Source of the DNA: Escherichia phage ESSI2_ev015
Reading direction: 5' to 3' (one strand)
DNA: 30,584 nucleotides
Sequence record: NC_049395.1
Of the stretch, positions 237 through 30,584 are shown piece by piece. Every line of letters begins with the position of its first letter. Positions within the stretch are counted from its first letter, which is position 1. The position numbers and the translations under genes were made by a program. The notes beneath the pieces are model-generated. The model was not told the origin of the DNA. It saw only the letters and a list, made by a program, of their open reading frames with translations, and made no database searches.

Positions 237-1940
237 TCAGGCAATTATATTCTGGTACTTGCTCCGGGTCTGCCCGGCTTTCGTCGCCGTCTGTGTAAAC
301 TCGGCGGCATTGGTTGGAGTCCCAACGGTGGGGTGTGAATGGTTCGCGCATTGCTGCGCCAGTTCTGCCAGTAAATCAATAGTGTCCAGCATCATGGTCA
401 GGGCGTTGATACTCTCGCTGCCAATATGGACAGTTGCCCCCATGACCTGCTGACCGCCAGCGGCCACTGATTTACGCAGTGCGGCAATCTTCTCTGTCAG
501 GCTTTCGCCAACCTCCACGGCTACAGCACCGCCCACTTTAGTGGACTGCTGTCCTGCTATGTCCGTTTCTTCGTTTCCTTCAATACTGGCCAGCCTGTTT
601 CCTTTCACCGCCTGGCTATAATCACCGGCGCTTACCTGCTGGATGGCTCCGGCCAGCAGTGTGGCGGTTCCCAGTACCGTGGTTTTATCCGTGGCTTTCA
701 CCGTGGTTTCACGGCTGACCAGTTCGCGCTGTTCCGTATCGGCTTTTACGGTTCGCGCCATCGATGTTTCGCTGATGGTCTGATCGGTCTGCCTTACCCA
801 GTCGCCCGCCTGAGTCACCCTCTGGGATACTTCTTCCCGCTGCTGCTGCAACTGTTCACCGGGTTTAACGTCCGGCAGACTGGTGCCATCCGGTAGCGTC
901 TGCCTGATAAAAGGTTTATCCGGTCTGCCTCCCGTGAATGCAACCTCAACCAGCGTCCCTTCTGGCGGAAACTGAAACATACCTGAATCATTCCCGGCCA
1001 TTGGTACCGGCAGCGGCACCGCTGAATAAACAGGCGTCTGATTGTCCGGGTTTCCGTCTGCGTCAAGCAGCTGCACGTCCACGGCGTAACGTGGCCGAAA
1101 GGGATCGGCAAAGTTACCGCTTTTTACCGGCTCTGAATGCGCCACGACTCTGGCCATCTTTGGCAAATGAAGCCCGGATGCCAGTTCCGGGTAATGGCTT
1201 TCAATCTGCCGTTGCGCCGGTGTTTTCTGCAAAGGTTTACCCGTTGCGCGGTTTCTCGGCGTCCATGTGATCGCCATCGTGTCATTAGTCAGGTGAACTT
1301 TAGTCACGCGTTCACCGTTCATCTCCACCCCTGGCCGCATAGTCTGGATCACTGGTAATGTCACAGAGTTACCGCCAGCAGCCCCCTGGCTGAACTCTGA
1401 CGGGATTTCTACGTGACGACCGGCAAACAATGACTTTTCTGCGCCGCCGACGTAAAGCGAACCATCAGGCAACTGGTACCAGATGTAATCCAGGATACTG
1501 AACGCCCTGCCCAGATTGTTCAGCAACTGATAACCAGTACCGTTATGGGTAAAATGTGGGATGGGGGTATCGCTGTACTGTGCATCAGGCACACTGACCG
1601 TGATCCCGCTGTTTTCTTCCAACCAGCCCGCAATTTCACGCAAAGTCGGGTGTTGAAACGAACATGGCCACATCCTTTCAAACACACCTACCAGCTCACG
1701 AATGAACAGACGCTGAAAACCGTTTTCTGCGGGCTGCGATCGCTCCACATACCCCGTAAACCAGCGCAAAAGCAGATCGGTATACCCCACATCCAGCCGC
1801 ACCAGTTTTCCGGTGTAATCGGTTGTTGTCTCTGCGGTGATGAAGCCCCGGCCGCAGCTGTTCAGCTCCAGTACCAGGCTGGCATCCACCAGGTGAACTT
1901 CATCCGTTGAAAGGTAAAGGCGTTTTACTGGTTTCATCAT
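237..1940 (-). CDS. Putative baseplate hub/central spike fusion (gpD+gpV-like, VgrG-like)
   Basis: 567 aa, last gene of late operon. Residues ~310-345 (MFQFPPEGTLVEVAFTGGRPDKPFI) resemble the gpV/gp5 OB-fold spike motif; helical C-terminal region ends in HSHPTVGTPTN (His-containing tip). Start ATG overlaps stop of upstream gene by 1 nt. Assignment by motif and position, not by search. Confidence 0.45.
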   Translation of the reverse strand: MMKPVKRLYLSTDEVHLVDASLVLELNSCGRGFITAETTTDYTGKLVRLDVGYTDLLLRWFTGYVERSQPAENGFQRLFIRELVGVFERMWPCSFQHPTLREIAGWLEENSGITVSVPDAQYSDTPIPHFTHNGTGYQLLNNLGRAFSILDYIWYQLPDGSLYVGGAEKSLFAGRHVEIPSEFSQGAAGGNSVTLPVIQTMRPGVEMNGERVTKVHLTNDTMAITWTPRNRATGKPLQKTPAQRQIESHYPELASGLHLPKMARVVAHSEPVKSGNFADPFRPRYAVDVQLLDADGNPDNQTPVYSAVPLPVPMAGNDSGMFQFPPEGTLVEVAFTGGRPDKPFIRQTLPDGTSLPDVKPGEQLQQQREEVSQRVTQAGDWVRQTDQTISETSMARTVKADTEQRELVSRETTVKATDKTTVLGTATLLAGAIQQVSAGDYSQAVKGNRLASIEGNEETDIAGQQSTKVGGAVAVEVGESLTEKIAALRKSVAAGGQQVMGATVHIGSESINALTMMLDTIDLLAELAQQCANHSHPTVGTPTNAAEFTQTATKAGQTRSKYQNIIA

Positions 1941-2485
1941 TAACCCAAAGCATCATTGACGGGCTTCAGCACTTTGCGTTCAAACCACGTCAGTTTTTCT
2001 TCATCTTCTCCGGCAGACTGGCCACCGGACTGTCCCACACTACCGGCAGTCTGTTTTTTTGCGGTCGTCTTACCTGTTGCCCTGGCCTCTCGCTTTTCCT
2101 GCACGCTGATATGTTCCGCCAGTGTGAATGTCACCAGCCAGGCCATTTTCCCGTCCTGCTGGGGTGCATCCAGCATTCCGCTGAACGTTGCTTCACGAAA
2201 ATTAACAGCACGGGCAACTTCATGCGCCACTCGGTACTTCTGACGATTACCACTGGCATCGGTAGCACTGGCCAGTTCAAAAATACGCTTCAGTATTTCA
2301 GGCTGTTTAAAAGGTATTTCACCGCTGATCCGCAGTTCCTTTCCCTTTGCTCCCTGCTCTGATTTTGTTGTGGCACTGGTCTGGCCGGACTGATCTTTAT
2401 CCTGAAATTGCTGTGAAACAGTCACCCGCATGTTTTTCAGCTGGATGGCTTCGCCATTAAGCGCCAGTGTCGGGATCGAAGTCAT
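1940..2485 (-). CDS. Uncharacterized late-operon protein (181 aa)
   Basis: ATG with AAGGGA Shine-Dalgarno upstream; overlaps upstream ORF by 29 nt and downstream gene by 1 nt (translationally coupled). No motif I can assign. Confidence 0.5.
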   Translation of the reverse strand: MTSIPTLALNGEAIQLKNMRVTVSQQFQDKDQSGQTSATTKSEQGAKGKELRISGEIPFKQPEILKRIFELASATDASGNRQKYRVAHEVARAVNFREATFSGMLDAPQQDGKMAWLVTFTLAEHISVQEKREARATGKTTAKKQTAGSVGQSGGQSAGEDEEKLTWFERKVLKPVNDALG

Positions 2486-3182
2486 GAATCATTCCCTTTA
2501 TTCCATCAAGATTATCGCCAACCAGCATCATGGCAGCTGTGTAAACGGCAGACTGCTGCGGAATGTCCTTCACCAGTTCCAGTAACGTGGTACCGGTGTC
2601 TCCGCTGGCAGTAAAAACCCACGCTCTGGCACTCTTCCCCTGTAAATCATTCAGGCCGCTGGCCACATCACTGATAAGCTGGTCACGCAGCTGCGTGAAC
2701 TCGCCCAGCTGTTTTTTCAGCCCTTCGATATCAAACCCGGCACCCGCCGCCTTTTGTGCCTGGCTGATTGCCGCAGCAGATAAAGCTGCCCTGCTGGTTG
2801 GTACAGACAGCGGAATGGACGCAGGTAACGCAGCGGCGGTTTTCGCAGGGATCTGCATCTTTTCAATAGCCAGCGCTGCGGCGGATTGCGCCAGCCGTTT
2901 GACCTGCATGAATGCCGGGGCGGGGAAAATCCCGACCAGGTTATTCAGGCTGGCCATAAAGTTTTCCTGCGTCTGTCCGGTGACCATCATAATCACCACA
3001 TCCGCATTCCCCCCTGTTCCGGCCAGGCGTTCAGCAAGATAGCGAACGGCATTAACCGGGCTGAGATATGCCCCGTTCGCTGTCTGCTGTCCCAGCCCAT
3101 AAATCCACGGATGCGCAGGGACGATCGAACAGTTCAGCGCAGCAACAGAATCCGTGAAGGCCAGACGTGCTTCACGCCACAT
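2457..3182 (-). CDS. Uncharacterized late-operon protein (~241 aa)
   Basis: Track ORF 2457-3218; internal ATG at 3182 (MWREARL...) preferred because it has a GGAGG Shine-Dalgarno and overlaps the tail-fibre-assembly stop by only ~11 nt. No recognisable motif. Confidence 0.45.
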   Translation of the reverse strand: MWREARLAFTDSVAALNCSIVPAHPWIYGLGQQTANGAYLSPVNAVRYLAERLAGTGGNADVVIMMVTGQTQENFMASLNNLVGIFPAPAFMQVKRLAQSAAALAIEKMQIPAKTAAALPASIPLSVPTSRAALSAAAISQAQKAAGAGFDIEGLKKQLGEFTQLRDQLISDVASGLNDLQGKSARAWVFTASGDTGTTLLELVKDIPQQSAVYTAAMMLVGDNLDGIKGMIHDFDPDTGA

Positions 3183-3759
3183 TTCCGGGCACCTCCGGCC
3201 ACACAATTTCCGGCGCATCTTCCGGTTGAATACGGTTCAGTAAAACGCGGTATTTTTTCCATGCGGTAAGCAGCAGTGCTTCTTCTTCGGTCGCCATGTC
3301 TAAATCAACGGCATCCTGCAATGTGGCAATAGCGTCATTGGCCTGTTTAAGCAGTCTTTTCTTTTCGGCGTCTGCCTCGCTGACTAATGCAATTCGCATG
3401 GCCTCCGCATCATCCACCCACGCCTTACCATTCCATTTTTGCCAGGCATTAGCCGGTGCTAACGTGGTTGTCCCTTCCGGGTAAGCGCCTGGCTCGGTGA
3501 TCACCAGTTCATTACCGTTTTCTGTATCAAACACCACCTCACCACGATGATCCTCACGGGAAATCCATCTTTGCTTCTCTGAATCAAAAATTGCCACAAA
3601 CCCCGCTTTGTTTACCGGTGGTTTTATTGTGGTGCAGTTGGCTGGCAGTCCGGTATGCGCAGGTATAAAAGCGTCACCCGAACCAATAAATTCATTCGTG
3701 TCTGAACGCAGGTTATAAACAGTAACTGTTTGATCGGTTTCACTCATTTTAAAAGTCAT
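3172..3759 (-). CDS. Tail fibre assembly chaperone (Tfa/gpG-like)
   Basis: 195 aa directly after the tail fibre gene with TAATG stop/start overlap; size, position and C-terminal region typical of tail fibre assembly proteins. Confidence 0.65.
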   Translation of the reverse strand: MTFKMSETDQTVTVYNLRSDTNEFIGSGDAFIPAHTGLPANCTTIKPPVNKAGFVAIFDSEKQRWISREDHRGEVVFDTENGNELVITEPGAYPEGTTTLAPANAWQKWNGKAWVDDAEAMRIALVSEADAEKKRLLKQANDAIATLQDAVDLDMATEEEALLLTAWKKYRVLLNRIQPEDAPEIVWPEVPGNVA

Positions 3760-5333
3760 TATGCGAGTCTCACTATGTAGTTAAATGCAATGTTCTTAAC
3801 GGTCGTTTCTGCGTTGCCCGACGCGGCAATGGTTATTACATGACTGTGTTCACCTATTGCTACAGTATGAGAATGAGCACCAATACCTACGGTATGATTG
3901 TGTGCGCCAATACCTACTGTATGAGCATGGTTGCCAGCCGACCCCGTATTACCAGTTGTTACGTTATCGCCGCCCTGACCTCTATTGATATCCCCGTTTT
4001 GAGTGGCCTGCCCCTTAACATATGTATGTGTATGCGCACCAGTCGTATTCGTTGTTTTGGTTCCGTAGTCAAATGTACTGGTGGTTTTAGTACCGTAATC
4101 AAATGATGATGTTGCTTTTGTCCCCAAATCCGTACTGGATGCACTGGCGGTGTGGGCATGGGATTTATTGCCATCATCTTCATAGGAGAGAACTGCGCGG
4201 CCGTCTGGTTTCCCTTTGATTGTCTGGCGGCGCATGTCAGTAATAACACCCGATGGATACGCAGCAGCTAGCAAAGGATATGCCGCCGTATTAAAAGACT
4301 GCCCCTGCATAATTGCCCATCCAGTAGGTGGGATATCTGTTGGCCATGGAAGCGGCACACCAACCGGCAGAACGTCACTGCGACTTAAAACGGCCAGTTC
4401 ACCCAGATCCAGACTTTTTCTTGCTTTTACCTTATCGTTAACATCAGCAAGGTTTGCATCCTTACGCAAAAAATCGCTGCTGGCCTGCTGTTCTCCCAGG
4501 CTACCTTTTGGCCGTAAATCCGTGATGTTGCCATCCACATCAATGCTGGCCACAGCAAACACATAATGCTGAACTCCGTTCTGAACGTAATCAGCAAGGT
4601 TTGCAGCCACCGTGATTTTGCTCTGCACATTCCAGACACTGATCAGCGTCCCTGTCCAGCACACATCCAGCCAGACTTTTACCGGCTTTGTCGTCACCGT
4701 AATATTCTGATTCGCAGCCAGTGACGCACGAAGTCCAGCCACATACCCCGTGCCTTTCGTGACAAAAAACTGATTGCCGGTTTTGGCTACCAGATACCCG
4801 TTACCAAAAAACGCCGCCGCGCCATAAATATCTATATTTTCCAGGCGCTGGCGCTCATCCATTCCGGCCATACGCGCAGTAAAATCAATCTGCCAGGTTT
4901 CAGCGGGTGTATTAATCCCGGTTTCCGTTTGTGCGCCGTTGTACTCCATCAGAAACGAGCGGGTCAGCACGTTCCCCTGTTGCCCTTCTTTTGTTTTCAG
5001 TTTCTGCTGTGATGGTGCATGGACAATCATTGCCAGCGTACCGCTGGCCTTATTTAGCAGACCGATCCAGTTAAAGCTGAAATCACCCACATCTGCGCCC
5101 AGTACTACGGAATAGACCACCCCGTTTTCATTCACCACACCCGTGCGGGTAACAGACTGCCGGTGAACAATCTGTGCTGTCGGGGGCAACGCTTCATTGC
5201 GGTCAACAGGTGTATCCGGGTTTAAATTCGGCACACTGGCAAAAACAAATTCGTCCAGTAGTACCGGTTCACCCGTTGCACCCTGCTGTGCTTTCCAGTT
5301 TTCAAACGCCAGTGTGATGGCTGTCTGTGACAT
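3759..5333 (-). CDS. Tail fibre protein
   Basis: 524 aa; C-terminal tandem peptide repeats ([15 protein letters not shown] x3; [14 protein letters not shown] x3) rich in His/Gly/Thr, typical of phage tail fibre distal regions; follows baseplate genes. Confidence 0.75.
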
Positions 5334-26710: not shown

Positions 26711-27298
26711 ATGAGCAAATTCCCTTTTGAGCAGATAGGGCACAGCAGCGACGTGCTTGATCGAGTAGTAGAGGCTTACGGCTTCACTTCAAAGCTACAG
26801 CTTGCGGAACATTTCGATATGGCCTCAAGTAGCCTTTCCGCAAGGTTTAAACGAGGAATATTCCCGGCTGATATGGTGGTTCGCTGCGTAGCAGAAACCG
26901 GGGCGTCTCTTGAGTGGCTATCTACTGGCCAGGGGAAGAAATTCGATGATGATCAGTTAGACATCATGAAATTTCCCCGTAAAAAATTAGTTGATGGCCA
27001 GCTCTATGACTCTGGTTACGCAATGTTCGATAAAGTTTTTTTCAGGGCAGGAGCGCCACTCCCCGCAGCACCTTTCTGCGTACTAGATGAAAAAGCGCAG
27101 TACATCCTAGACCAGAAATTTTCCGAGGTTTTTGATGGCGAATGGCTGGTAAATATCGAAGGAAAAACCAGTATCAGAACGCTGACACGCATCCCGGTAA
27201 AAAAGGTACGCGTCAGTGGTGTTGGCATGGCTTTTGACTGTGGGCTGGAAGATATCGAAATTATCGGCCGCGTGGTCATGACGATAACAAACGCATAA
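26711..27298 (+). CDS. cI: CI-like immunity repressor
   Basis: 195 aa (186 CI is ~192 aa as I recall), immediately upstream of and overlapping int (TAATG); divergent from the early operon. Confidence 0.6.
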   Translation: MSKFPFEQIGHSSDVLDRVVEAYGFTSKLQLAEHFDMASSSLSARFKRGIFPADMVVRCVAETGASLEWLSTGQGKKFDDDQLDIMKFPRKKLVDGQLYDSGYAMFDKVFFRAGAPLPAAPFCVLDEKAQYILDQKFSEVFDGEWLVNIEGKTSIRTLTRIPVKKVRVSGVGMAFDCGLEDIEIIGRVVMTITNA

Positions 27299-28359
27299 TG
27301 GGCATCAGAAAACAGCCGGACGGGAAATGGTTGCTGGACTTTTACCCGGAAGGAAAACCCCAGGGAAAAGCCAGCAAGCGCATCCGCAAGACGTTCTCCA
27401 CCAAAGGCGAGGCGCTAGCCTACCAAAATCACATTATGGAAAACGTCCATGTAAAGCCCTGGCTTGACGGTAAAGAGGATCGGAGAAAGCTACGCGACTT
27501 AGTAAACCAATGGTTCGATGAACATGGTGTGACGCTTGACGATGGCGAAAAACGTAAAGGCGCAATGGAATTTGCGTGTCAAAGCATGGGTGATCCGCTG
27601 GCGCATGAATTTGACGCCACGATGTTTTCGCTTTATCGCAAAAAACGTTTATCCGGTGAAATATCCAGAACAGCGCGTGTAAAACAAGTCGCTCCCAGAA
27701 CCATGAATTTAGAACTGGCCTATTTTCGTGCCGTGTTTAATGAGCTTAAGCGCTTAGGACATTGGAAATCTGAAAACCCCCTGTCTAACGTTCGCCCCTT
27801 TAAATCTGAGGAAGCTGAACTGGCTTATTTGGAACATGATGAAATCGAACGATTGTTATCCGAATGTTCGAAAAGTCGAAACGCCAGCACTTACTGGGTT
27901 GCATGTTTATGCCTGATAACCGGCGCTCGCTGGGATGAAGCGGAATCATTAACGACTAAGCAAATCAGAAACCTAAAAGTCAGCTTTTTTAAAACTAAAG
28001 GGAACAGGAACAGAACTGTTCCAATCAGCCAGGACTTTTATGACGCATTGCCGAAACCAGAAAAACCAGGGCGTTTTTTTACACCCTGCTATTCGGCCTT
28101 TCGCAAAGCCGTAGAGCGTGCGGAACTCGACTTACCTGATGGCCAATTGTCACATGTGCTACGACACACTTTCGCCAGTCACTTTATGATGAACGGCGGG
28201 AACATTCTGGTTTTAAAAGAGATACTGGGACACACTGACATTAAAATGACCATGCGTTACGCGCATTTCGCTCCAAGCCATTTGCAGGAAGCCATAACGC
28301 TAAACCCTTTGGGACAAAATGCCCCTTTTCTGTCCCCTCAGGACTCAAACATCCAATAA
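27298..28359 (+). CDS. int: Tyrosine-type integrase
   Basis: 353 aa; C-terminal catalytic region HVLRHTFASHFMMNGGNILVLKEILGHTDIKMTMRYAHF (R...H-x-x-R...Y signature); adjacent to the att core. Confidence 0.9.
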   Translation: MGIRKQPDGKWLLDFYPEGKPQGKASKRIRKTFSTKGEALAYQNHIMENVHVKPWLDGKEDRRKLRDLVNQWFDEHGVTLDDGEKRKGAMEFACQSMGDPLAHEFDATMFSLYRKKRLSGEISRTARVKQVAPRTMNLELAYFRAVFNELKRLGHWKSENPLSNVRPFKSEEAELAYLEHDEIERLLSECSKSRNASTYWVACLCLITGARWDEAESLTTKQIRNLKVSFFKTKGNRNRTVPISQDFYDALPKPEKPGRFFTPCYSAFRKAVERAELDLPDGQLSHVLRHTFASHFMMNGGNILVLKEILGHTDIKMTMRYAHFAPSHLQEAITLNPLGQNAPFLSPQDSNIQ

Positions 28360-28432
28360 CATTCAATAATATTCGTTGTGTAACTTTCTGATTTATCTGT
28401 AAGTTATTGTTTTTAAATGATGGTGCATCGTT

Positions 28433-28477
28433 CTCATAATCGCTTGGTCGCTGGTTCAAGTCCAGCAGGGGCCACCA
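28433..28477 (+). tRNA. 3' 45-nt fragment of a tRNA-Ile (CAU anticodon, ileX/ileY-like) = prophage att core copy
   Basis: CTCATAATCGCTTGGTCGCTGGTTCAAGTCCAGCAGGGGCCACCA: anticodon loop, T-arm (GGTTCAAGTCC) and acceptor 3' strand with CCA, but no 5' half upstream; matches my recollection of E. coli tRNA-Ile2. 74 bp downstream of the int stop. Confidence 0.6.
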
Positions 28478-28506
28478 AATTTTAGCTTTAAAATCATATA
28501 ATTAAA

Positions 28507-28531
28507 CCACTTCTAACGGAGTGGTTTTTTT
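28507..28531 (+). terminator. Rho-independent terminator downstream of the tRNA fragment
   Basis: Hairpin CCACTTC-taac-GGAGTGG followed by TTTTTTT. Confidence 0.55.
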
Positions 28532-28695
28532 GTTTATAGTGGTCAGTGTCCCCTTTTTGTCCCCTCACTTTCACCCACACTCATCTATACCTCAGTTGTT
28601 AGCACTTCACCGAACCATGACGATTGAACGCTTTGCGCTTTTTTTACATACTGTTTCAATCTCATTTGCCAATAATTTTTAGTCAGGATGACAAT

Positions 28696-29322
28696 ATGAC
28701 TTCGTACAATGAACTGAAAGAATGTATCCGCCTTGAAGTCATTGGCCATGACAAATCCTTTTCATGGCGTAAAGCGTTACTTCGTACCCGACGCAACCAG
28801 AAGAAGCACTTCCTGTTCTGGTGGCGTATTGCTTCATGGCTCTATGCCCAGAATAGTAAGTTCAAAAAGCGCATTGCCCGCAGGATTGAAAACCGCCTCA
28901 AGTACCGGCACAGCGTTGATATTTCGCTGTCATGCAAAATCGGCAAGGGTTTAAACATTGCTCATCTAAACGGCATTGTGATTACTGACAATTGCGTGAT
29001 TGGTGATTTCGCCGACCTGAAGCAAGGCATCACCATAGGGTTACGCACCGACAGTGCCGACGCGATGATAGTCATTGGTGATCGTGTTGATATTGGCTGT
29101 AACTCGTCCATTCTGGGCGGCAAGGTTACGATCGGAAACAATGTCACCATTGGTGCGCATTCGCTAGTGCTTCAGAACATCCCCAGCGACACCGTTTATA
29201 AAAACAAGATCACGCCAGTGTATACATCCAAACTACCGCAGACGGAATATCAGGAAAAGCAGCCTTTTGTCACTGGCAATGCGACAAAAGAAGCGTCCCG
29301 TTCCGCAGAAGCAGTGCTGTAA
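28696..29322 (+). CDS. Hexapeptide-repeat acetyltransferase, serine acetyltransferase (CysE/WcaB)-like
   Basis: Track start is TTG; ATG at 28696 with AGGATGA upstream. Left-handed beta-helix hexapeptide repeats (IGKGLNIAHLNGIVITDNCVIGDFADLKQGITIG...) preceded by a WRIASWLY-type helix as in the CysE family; low-GC region. Confidence 0.65.
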   Translation: MTSYNELKECIRLEVIGHDKSFSWRKALLRTRRNQKKHFLFWWRIASWLYAQNSKFKKRIARRIENRLKYRHSVDISLSCKIGKGLNIAHLNGIVITDNCVIGDFADLKQGITIGLRTDSADAMIVIGDRVDIGCNSSILGGKVTIGNNVTIGAHSLVLQNIPSDTVYKNKITPVYTSKLPQTEYQEKQPFVTGNATKEASRSAEAVL

Positions 29323-29531
29323 TTTCGCTGAACAAATTTCAGTTGTGAAGATTTCATAAATTTACGTGCAGCCCGCGCCAGTTCTTACAAGCGGGCTTAT
29401 CTCTATAATCTCTGGCTTACCACGATCCACACCGCCTAAAATCTAAAGTTGATATGCAGCCTATGAGGATAGATAATCAGTTTGTGGCTTGTTTTACGTT
29501 ATAACTAAATCTTATTAAAAGAGGTATTTAA

Positions 29532-29846
29532 ATGAACTTAAACAATAACCCTACAGTAAGCCAACTCTCACAACTAATCTCTGTTTGCGACGATAACGCA
29601 GGTCATCATATTCTTTGGGTATCTAAATCTGGCGATGTAGCAGTTACACAAATAAATGATTTGTCTCCAATTGGCTTTGAAGAAAACACCCCATCAATGG
29701 CAATGCGTTATGAAACTTTCCAACGTGGAAATGACTATGTTGGAAAAAATGCAGCAGAAGATGCAACTCACATGGAAAGACTACTTAGAGATTTGCTAAA
29801 CGAATGGCCATTATATAACGGCAATCGTGTACGGTACATTGGCTAA
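29532..29846 (+). CDS. Hypothetical protein (104 aa), first gene of an AT-rich two-gene cassette
   Basis: ATG with AAGAGG Shine-Dalgarno; AT-rich codon usage distinct from the prophage; no recognisable motif. Confidence 0.5.
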   Translation: MNLNNNPTVSQLSQLISVCDDNAGHHILWVSKSGDVAVTQINDLSPIGFEENTPSMAMRYETFQRGNDYVGKNAAEDATHMERLLRDLLNEWPLYNGNRVRYIG

Positions 29847-29861
29847 TAAAAAAGGTGGGGT

Positions 29862-30230
29862 ATGGCAACCAATTGTTATGTAAGAGTTTTAGATAATAAC
29901 ACTAAACGTGTCTATGATGTTGGGCCATTTATTAATAGCGGTAATGAGGCCTTCTCTGGAGCAGATAGCGCCATAAATTGGATTTACAAACAAATTGGCT
30001 TAGTCAAAATACAATATCCAGAATCAACTTTAATAAAGCATAAATGGGATTATGTTAAAGATGATTTTTATGGCCCTACTGCTGATGTAAAAGTTGAAAT
30101 ATCAAACTTTATTTTTGAGATTTTTAAACTGCTACCTGCTGACACTCAAAATGTAATTAATGAACAAATTACAGATAATTTGCCCACATGGTACAAAGAT
30201 GAAAAAGAAAGTCATATTGATGAAAATTGA
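29862..30230 (+). CDS. Hypothetical protein (122 aa), second gene of the AT-rich cassette
   Basis: ATG 15 nt after the upstream stop with AAGGTGG Shine-Dalgarno; no recognisable motif. Confidence 0.5.
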   Translation: MATNCYVRVLDNNTKRVYDVGPFINSGNEAFSGADSAINWIYKQIGLVKIQYPESTLIKHKWDYVKDDFYGPTADVKVEISNFIFEIFKLLPADTQNVINEQITDNLPTWYKDEKESHIDEN

Positions 30231-30300
30231 TTACCTATTGGCGCACTTAAAGTGTAGGTATGCTAATTTCACTTTCTGAATTTAATCTAATCCCCCTAAA

Positions 30301-30331
30301 ACCCGCACCACAACTGGCATTGCGGGTTTTT
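30301..30331 (+). terminator. Possible terminator after the two-gene cassette
   Basis: Stem ACCCGCA/TGCGGGT with a long 13-nt loop followed by TTTTT, ~70 nt after the stop at 30230; loop length is atypical. Confidence 0.3.
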
Positions 30332-30584
30332 CCTCCTACACATTGCCTTCGACATTTGATCTTCTCCACTCCACAAAAAATACAATTTATTATTGTATTT
30401 CAATTGCTTGCCTTTCCACTTAGATCCTTTACAGATCCTCTAAACTGAAAAATGCTGAAATTCTTTTCAATCTTTTCAGTTCCTGTTCTTTGGCAAGCAG
30501 CCAACCGTGGCGCGGTCTGGCGGTGCTGTTTGTAGAAAAATAAAACTGAAAAAATTTCCAGATCCAGAAACCGCAGGCGGGTGC

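Follow-up and report, generated by a model that had tools for sequence, protein, structure and literature searches.

Temperate phages can carry accessory transcription units called morons, a term defined for HK97/HK022-type lambdoid phages. Here we describe a two-gene cassette, ORF104 and ORF122, in Escherichia phage ESSI2_ev015 (NC_049395.1; all 30,584 nucleotides [nt] of the record were analyzed and are called the window below), and compare it with morons and with the other described systems that come closest. Like a moron, the cassette is an extra unit whose flanking genes adjoin each other in close relatives, and at this one position it is present in some of these and absent from others. 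Its base composition is unlike that of the surrounding phage genome, a candidate promoter precedes it and a terminator-like hairpin follows it, and it is dispensable, since sister phages exist without it. Unlike described morons, it encodes products that fall into no described moron-encoded family, and its expression from the prophage is presumed. Our preferred reading, which we hold tentatively, is that of a conflict-related moron acting by binding, with protection of the lysogen as its most likely role.

P2-like prophages have defense-rich hotspots, among them the tin/old and Z/fun loci (Rousset et al. 2022, PMC9122126; Vassallo et al. 2022, PMC9519451; PMC13586616), and minor ones near att and int (PMC13586616; PMC9519451). 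Of eight loci of unknown function taken from the equivalent hotspots in P4-like satellites, six gave protection when tested (PMC13586616; PMC9519451). The cassette resembles such cargo in occupying a variable slot at a fixed position of a P2-type prophage, one in which sister phages have AbiJ-like or OLD/HEC-04-like genes; that is, it is located where related elements carry defense genes. It differs in that this slot lies between attP and the tail/baseplate genes, not at the gpA-gpQ or tail-fiber hotspot of classical P2, and in that neither of its proteins matches a described system.

Two further comparisons concern single proteins and gene architecture. The domain that makes up ORF104 is found as an accessory, noncatalytic part of a PD-T4-6-type kinase and of a HEPN (RiboL-PSP) effector, in one protein each (P0109 and P0083, described below). 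ORF104, in contrast, is the free domain, and the cassette has no kinase or HEPN gene, so that it is a member of neither group. With type II toxin-antitoxin modules it shares two small adjacent genes that are probably cotranscribed and are inherited together; unlike those of such modules, both products are acidic, show no known toxin or antitoxin fold and no DNA-binding domain, and belong to families each of which occurs without the other. As far as sequence and fold comparison reaches, the cassette is no member of any described defense, counter-defense, immunity, or toxin-antitoxin family that could be compared here.

RESULTS

The cassette contains two genes under purifying selection

The elements of the cassette are as follows.

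29532-29846, + strand: ORF104, 104 amino acids (aa); acidic soluble protein of an uncatalogued pan-bacterial alpha/beta domain family
29862-30230, + strand: ORF122, 122 aa; soluble and acidic, from another uncatalogued family, which is the rarer of the two
29449-29477, + strand: sigma-70-like promoter candidate (TTGATA, 17-nt spacer, GATAAT), matching the consensus at 10 of 12 positions
30298-30335, + strand: terminator-like hairpin at the end of the cassette, formed by a perfect 10-nt inverted repeat (30298-30307 and 30321-30330), and then a U-rich tract

The original prediction, made from the letters of the window, had described two small open reading frames on the + strand, 15 nt apart, each with a Shine-Dalgarno sequence, in DNA of lower GC content, and all of this holds. 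The coordinates are exact, and the ribosome binding sites can be read from the sequence as AAGAGG, about 8 nt 5′ of the ATG of ORF104, and AAGGTGG, about 5 nt 5′ of that of ORF122. ORF104 has a GC content of 0.387 and ORF122 one of 0.312, compared with 0.509 for the whole window; at third codon positions it is 0.29 and 0.21, compared with 0.48 in the integrase gene. The cassette is a compositionally foreign unit of two genes, acquired horizontally.

Both reading frames are real genes under purifying selection, because the start of ORF104 (MNL...) is kept in 31 of 31 aligned homologues, 19 columns of an alignment of 30 ORF122 homologues are invariant, and dN/dS against orthologues is low (0.07 to 0.12 for ORF104 and 0.10 to 0.25 for ORF122, at near-saturated dS). 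Of the two, ORF122 evolves faster.

The promoter candidate, 55 nt 5′ of the ORF104 ATG, is the best promoter-like site in the region 28300-30584; it is a consensus match, of a kind no commoner in this region than expected from shuffled sequence. The hairpin at 30298-30330 has a folding energy of −15.7 kcal/mol (z of −4.4 versus shuffles) and is followed by UUUUUCC; a simple terminator scan missed it because of its long loop. The search for RNA elements in the region returned a single, subthreshold match to Leu_leader, which is the terminator hairpin itself, and an inverted-repeat scan detected no operator palindrome 5′ of ORF104.

The cassette is cargo inside a phage genome

The rest of the region, in gene order toward the window end and on across it, contains the following.

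26711-27298, + strand: repressor
27298-28359, + strand: integrase
28434-28535, + strand: attP core and tRNA-type terminator; the core (28434-28477) is identical to the last 44 nt of a tRNA whose anticodon is CAT (terminator at 28504-28527)
28696-29322, + strand: CysE/EpsC-like hexapeptide acetyltransferase; a separate cargo gene, not part of the pair
30413-30584 plus 1-236, no strand assigned: conserved noncoding stretch across the window end, shared with ESSI2_ev040, E. coli prophages, and Salmonella prophages
237-1940, − strand: tail/baseplate gene, 567 aa, beyond the noncoding stretch at the window start

Window positions 1-25000 match phage ESSI2_ev040 (30,597 bp) at 98.7% and ESSI2_ev129 at 95.9%, both of them Peduoviridae of the genus Quadragintavirus. 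The ORF104 and ORF122 proteins are 100% identical to ESSI2_ev015 gp41 and gp42, and their sequences are already public as "hypothetical proteins"; the literature searched contained no mention of ESSI2_ev015 or of gp41/gp42.

The tRNA-derived att core and the CysE-like acetyltransferase named in the original prediction are present. Its placement of the cassette just outside the prophage att site, as a host islet beside a tRNA gene, does not stand. The att core occurs in a single copy in the window, where ARAGORN found no complete tRNA gene; in lysogens of Salmonella and Pantoea, the tRNA(CAT) genes at attL match it in their 3′ part. When the final 1,500 bases of the window were joined to its first 1,500 and used as a query, positions 1339-3000 of this junction aligned unbroken to an integrated E. 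coli prophage (L001 4903-6540) at 93%, and the same junction is also contiguous in a Salmonella prophage (L005 5983-7300). Because the att core is single and the window end joins the window start in prophages, we place the cassette inside the phage and reject the host islet. The window, on this evidence, is a complete, circularly permuted genome of a Quadragintavirus (a P2-type temperate phage), and the cassette belongs to its cargo, located between attP and the tail/baseplate genes, with about 170 bp of conserved noncoding DNA between the gene pair and the window end. Lysogens have the cassette immediately within attL, where the gene directly before it is tRNA(CAT) or, in relatives, ssrA.

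The slot holds different cargo in sister phages

The pair is not a core chromosomal operon, which the original prediction had itself named as the alternative. None of 5,426 complete E. coli genomes contains the pair, even when searched at blastn sensitivity, and it is likewise missing from ev040 and ev129, the closest sister phages, whose backbones are 96 to 99% identical. It does occupy the same genome position in prophages of Salmonella, Klebsiella, Serratia, and Yersinia.

In ev040, the slot holds an AbiJ-like gene (L003 28468-29286; PADLOC, 3e-16) together with the acetyltransferase; in ev129, it holds the acetyltransferase and a small reverse-strand ORF. E. coli prophages adjoining mntR have the acetyltransferase alone or with a 524-aa ATPase (L001 2334-3908) that matches HEC-04/ATPase-Toprim/OLD-type models at 3e-33. 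The acetyltransferase is thus found with no pair in ev040, ev129, and the E. coli prophages, and it is missing from the Salmonella prophages that have the pair in the slot. Because each occurs in the slot without the other, the two were inserted separately. The acetyltransferase itself has matches to Hexapep, EpsC, and CysE, all below curated cutoffs, and to phrog_2154 (function unknown) at 1e-56.

These contents mark the att-proximal slot of ESSI-2/Quadragintavirus-type prophages as a cargo hotspot. It has so far yielded an AbiJ-like gene, an OLD/HEC-04-like ATPase, the acetyltransferase, or the ORF104-ORF122 pair, and searching it further could uncover others of this sort.

The pair moves as a unit

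Throughout the Enterobacterales, ORF104 and ORF122 are always together, in fixed order and with a spacing of 13 to 15 nt. The pair is found in Salmonella (att at the tRNA-CAT gene adjoining mug), in Klebsiella aerogenes, Serratia, and Yersinia (att at ssrA), and in Pantoea, where a degraded prophage retains little beyond a repressor, an integrase, and the pair. In 12 ORF104/ORF122 cluster pairs, the two clusters have their longest contig in common, and in IMG/VR all four of the four contigs with a close ORF104 homologue also have ORF122. One of these, L044, has an unrelated, non-P2 backbone, on which a Mom homologue, terS, the pair, a putative terL, and a Phage_portal_3 portal gene follow one another in this order. 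The ORF104 homologue there is intact; the ORF122 homologue (4331-4700) is broken by a one-base frameshift after YDVGP, owing either to an error in sequencing or to decay of this gene. Because it has moved between unrelated phage backbones, the pair looks like a functional two-gene module, and all these occurrences point to its moving as a unit.

Beyond this group, each gene has distant homologues that stand alone. Lone ORF104-like genes were found in Ectopseudomonas, in Chlorobium, and in 14 genomes ranging from Burkholderiales to Planctomycetes, Bacteroidota, and Bacillota, and lone ORF122-like genes were found between prfA and prmC and in Methylophilus. When all fetched loci were scanned with profiles, no hidden partner turned up beside the lone genes. 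The possibility that ORF104 and ORF122 are distant paralogues was rejected (hhalign probability of 0.1).

As to the Pantoea remnants, the degraded prophage (L009 and L010, 6001-10528) keeps only the repressor, the integrase, DUF1493, DUF8209, and the pair, and the L009 copy adjoins another island, which carries genes for adenosine deaminase, Ham1, and SIR2.

ORF104 belongs to a large uncatalogued family

An exhaustive profile search gave at least 639 clusters (at 50% identity) of ORF104 relatives with an E value of 1e-3 or below, 280 of them with 1e-10 or below, spread over many bacterial phyla. The family is uncatalogued: over the ORF104 domain itself, none of 149 family members had a Pfam match. 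Near-invariant residues include N2, D21, H26, W29, G34, V36, R59, T62, N67, Y69, G71, and W92, and the motifs of ORF104 are MNL..., HH(I/V)LWV, and GN(D/G)YVG. The predicted structure of ORF104 is confident (pLDDT of 95.6), and neither solved structures nor BFVD viral models gave a significant match to its fold. For the two proteins of the pair, PDB entries gave no meaningful match by profile sequence search and none by fold. ORF122 has the motifs YDVGPF, AINWIYKQIG, and LIKHKWxY; 30 members of its family, scanned one by one, had no family-level match. Both proteins are acidic, with pI values of 4.95 (ORF104) and 4.68 (ORF122) and family medians of about 4.7 to 4.9. Neither has homology to housekeeping proteins, the other outcome against which the pair had been set at the start.

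In a few proteins the ORF104 domain is fused to another. P0083 combines it with a HEPN_RiboL-PSP RNase and is encoded directly after a TIR protein that matches the PADLOC candidate PDC-S35 at 9e-78. This arrangement recurs in two contigs with different flanks (L053 739-2779 and L054 588-2628), which suggests that P0083 and the TIR gene form a two-gene defense islet. P0109 is a Ser/Thr kinase matching PD-T4-6/mad6 models, fused to the domain. Other fusions involve a glyoxalase/VOC-type domain and, in one case, a tandem duplication. Among the members with additional sequence, P0133 and P0163 have a common N-terminal region with cysteine motifs (C..CGE...W.EW...VHHRPASP) that is zinc-ribbon-like by inspection and has no Pfam match.

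Stand-alone members have varied neighbors. The Ectopseudomonas homologue adjoins AbiTii and AbiH, in an array of small genes on one strand, Imm-NTF2-2 among them. Distant viral ORF104-like genes lie between C5 and N6/N4 DNA methylase genes or adjoin a PAPS reductase gene, and homologues are also found in a small-ORF array of an Acidovorax plasmid and in a jumbo cyanophage. Three genomes, two from Planctomycetes and one from Alcaligenaceae, encode another, strongly conserved protein of about 145 aa (ITVTFDI...FERLGWEHLGNTAYRY) after the ORF104-like gene, at these positions.

L026 4393-4824: alternative partner of an ORF104-like gene
L029 4364-4801: alternative partner of an ORF104-like gene
L030 4351-4752: alternative partner of an ORF104-like gene

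This protein was considered as a relative of ORF122 and rejected, as the two have no detectable relation; it has no Pfam match either. In two contigs, L032 and L033 (about 300-4310; Lachnospiraceae and Muribaculum), an ORF104-like gene directly follows fusA-tuf, and the EF-G and EF-Tu proteins are 87 to 89% identical between the contigs, which hints at misbinning or recent transfer.

DISCUSSION

We imagine the cassette as a self-contained, horizontally mobile accessory operon, a moron, in the att-proximal slot of an ESSI-2/Quadragintavirus-type phage. Its transcription probably starts at a promoter of its own (29449-29477) and stops at its own terminator (30298-30335); expression from the prophage would then be independent of the phage early and late operons. 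Both proteins are small, soluble, and acidic and have no catalytic signature, and they may thus act by binding and not by catalysis. ORF104 would most plausibly be a recognition or regulatory module, because the same domain is appended elsewhere to defense effectors (the HEPN RNase and the PD-T4-6-type kinase). ORF122 would be its lineage-specific partner, presumably in physical contact with it. Together they may protect the lysogen against competing phages, by a mechanism of the superinfection exclusion or abortive infection type. Such an antiphage or immunity role is indirectly favored by the contents of the slot in sister phages and by the fusions of the domain, and our best guess is that defense is likelier than counter-defense.

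Several results weigh against this. Neither protein has a match in Pfam, NCBIfam, PADLOC, or PHROGs at an E value of 1 or below, in keeping with the first impression that neither carries a recognizable motif; the defense scan used PADLOC-DB 2.0.0, whose coverage ends before systems described after 2023. Neither has a recognizable effector domain. Fusions to effectors are only a handful among the 150 listed representatives, most ORF104-family genes are solitary, no constant neighbor emerged in the loci examined, and some members lie beside housekeeping genes (fusA-tuf and serS). Distant ORF122 homologues also stand alone, for example between prfA and prmC. Because distant homologues of both genes occur singly, the pairing is lineage specific and could partly reflect coinheritance. 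Protection of the lysogen is a tentative proposal, and the one that we prefer.

One can envision a broader and more speculative version, which we consider doubtful. ORF104 might be a new, widespread immunity recognition domain that senses a phage product or an immune signal, with bacteria fusing it to effectors and phages carrying the free form; the pair would then be a new minimal two-protein system, antiphage or counter-defense, acting through binding alone and unrelated in sequence to any described system. So far the cassette combines a familiar genomic logic with unfamiliar components, and nothing about it is mechanistically surprising yet. Short of experiment, many hotspot cargos share its status. 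If the cassette does have a phenotype, it would be a system made of two protein families that no library recognizes, and it would provide the first functional handle on the ORF104 domain family, a large group whose predicted fold has no significant match.

Of the other explanations, counter-defense survives best, and we regard it as unlikely. One or both proteins would inhibit host immunity, as a signal sponge or a stoichiometric inhibitor, and the same domain would act as a sensor when fused. Small, soluble, acidic proteins would be suited to this, and the fusion of the domain to HEPN beside a CAP12/PycTIR-type TIR gene fits a ligand sensor that could be used in free form as a sponge. The neighbors of the viral homologues are of the anti-restriction type (C5 and N6/N4 methylases, PAPS reductase, and Mom near the pair in L044), and the plasmid copy in Acidovorax and the copy in the jumbo cyanophage point the same way. 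However, the many solitary chromosomal copies beside housekeeping genes would be unusual for counter-defense genes, the slot in sister phages holds genes of the defense and not the counter-defense type, and the cassette resembles an independently transcribed unit at a prophage end. Nor do the proteins have any sequence or fold likeness to described sponges, DNA mimics, or anti-CRISPRs.

It is improbable, in our view, that the pair has no role in conflict, whether it serves a regulatory, chaperone-like, or other physiological function, such as lysogenic conversion, or consists of neutral passengers. That no defense, toxin, or counter-defense model matches is consistent with this, as is the position of some homologues next to translation genes (fusA-tuf, serS, and prfA-prmC), and the acetyltransferase next to the pair is cargo with a typical lysogenic-conversion function. 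Strong purifying selection speaks against neutral passengers, however, and the transfer of the pair as a unit between unrelated phages, the defense-type genes in the slot of sister phages, and the effector fusions and Abi neighbors point to conflict.

Quite improbable, too, is a pair of orphan immunity proteins, each gene independently neutralizing an incoming polymorphic toxin (from contact-dependent inhibition, type VI secretion, Rhs, or bacteriocin systems). The proteins are small, acidic, and cytoplasmic, each is found alone elsewhere in a patchy distribution across phyla, the Ectopseudomonas homologue of ORF104 shares its same-strand array with an Imm-NTF2-2 member, and the pair is kept in the degraded Pantoea prophage. 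On the other side, neither gene is directly downstream of a large toxin gene in the approximately 35 loci examined, no Pfam Imm or SUKH match was found for the window proteins or for the 149 and 30 family members, and fusions to a HEPN RNase and a defense kinase would be atypical of immunity proteins.

A type II toxin-antitoxin or addiction module, with ORF104 as the antitoxin and ORF122 as the toxin, stabilizing the prophage or aborting infection, was among the options raised at the start and is very improbable: the two small co-oriented genes 15 nt apart, their conserved order and spacing, the faster evolution of the second gene, and the movement of the pair as a unit would suit it, but both proteins are acidic (atypical, not decisive), no toxin, antitoxin, or DNA-binding domain was detected in them, the inverted-repeat scan found no palindrome 5′ of ORF104, most ORF104 members are solitary, and lone ORF122 homologues (prfA-prmC and Methylophilus) have no ORF104 homologue nearby, which makes ORF122 an unlikely toxin, because a free toxin gene would not persist alone.

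Observations on the att region

The automated ORF call starts the acetyltransferase at a TTG at 28624, and its relatives are annotated from the ATG at 28696. In the noncoding stretch at 30413-30584 and 1-236, relatives have a small reverse-strand ORF (65 aa in Salmonella; gp42 in ev129). Within this one phage lineage, the integrase/att module has been exchanged: the window uses the 3′ end of tRNA(CAT), the E. coli sisters lie next to mntR, and the Klebsiella, Serratia, and Yersinia sisters are at ssrA (L018 4439-4801). In the tRNA(CAT) gene at the Salmonella attL (L005 5613-5688), the T-stem is CCCCG/GGGGA, compared with GCTGG/CCAGC in the att core of the window, so that both arms differ; this difference could reflect a tRNA 3′ half supplied by the phage.

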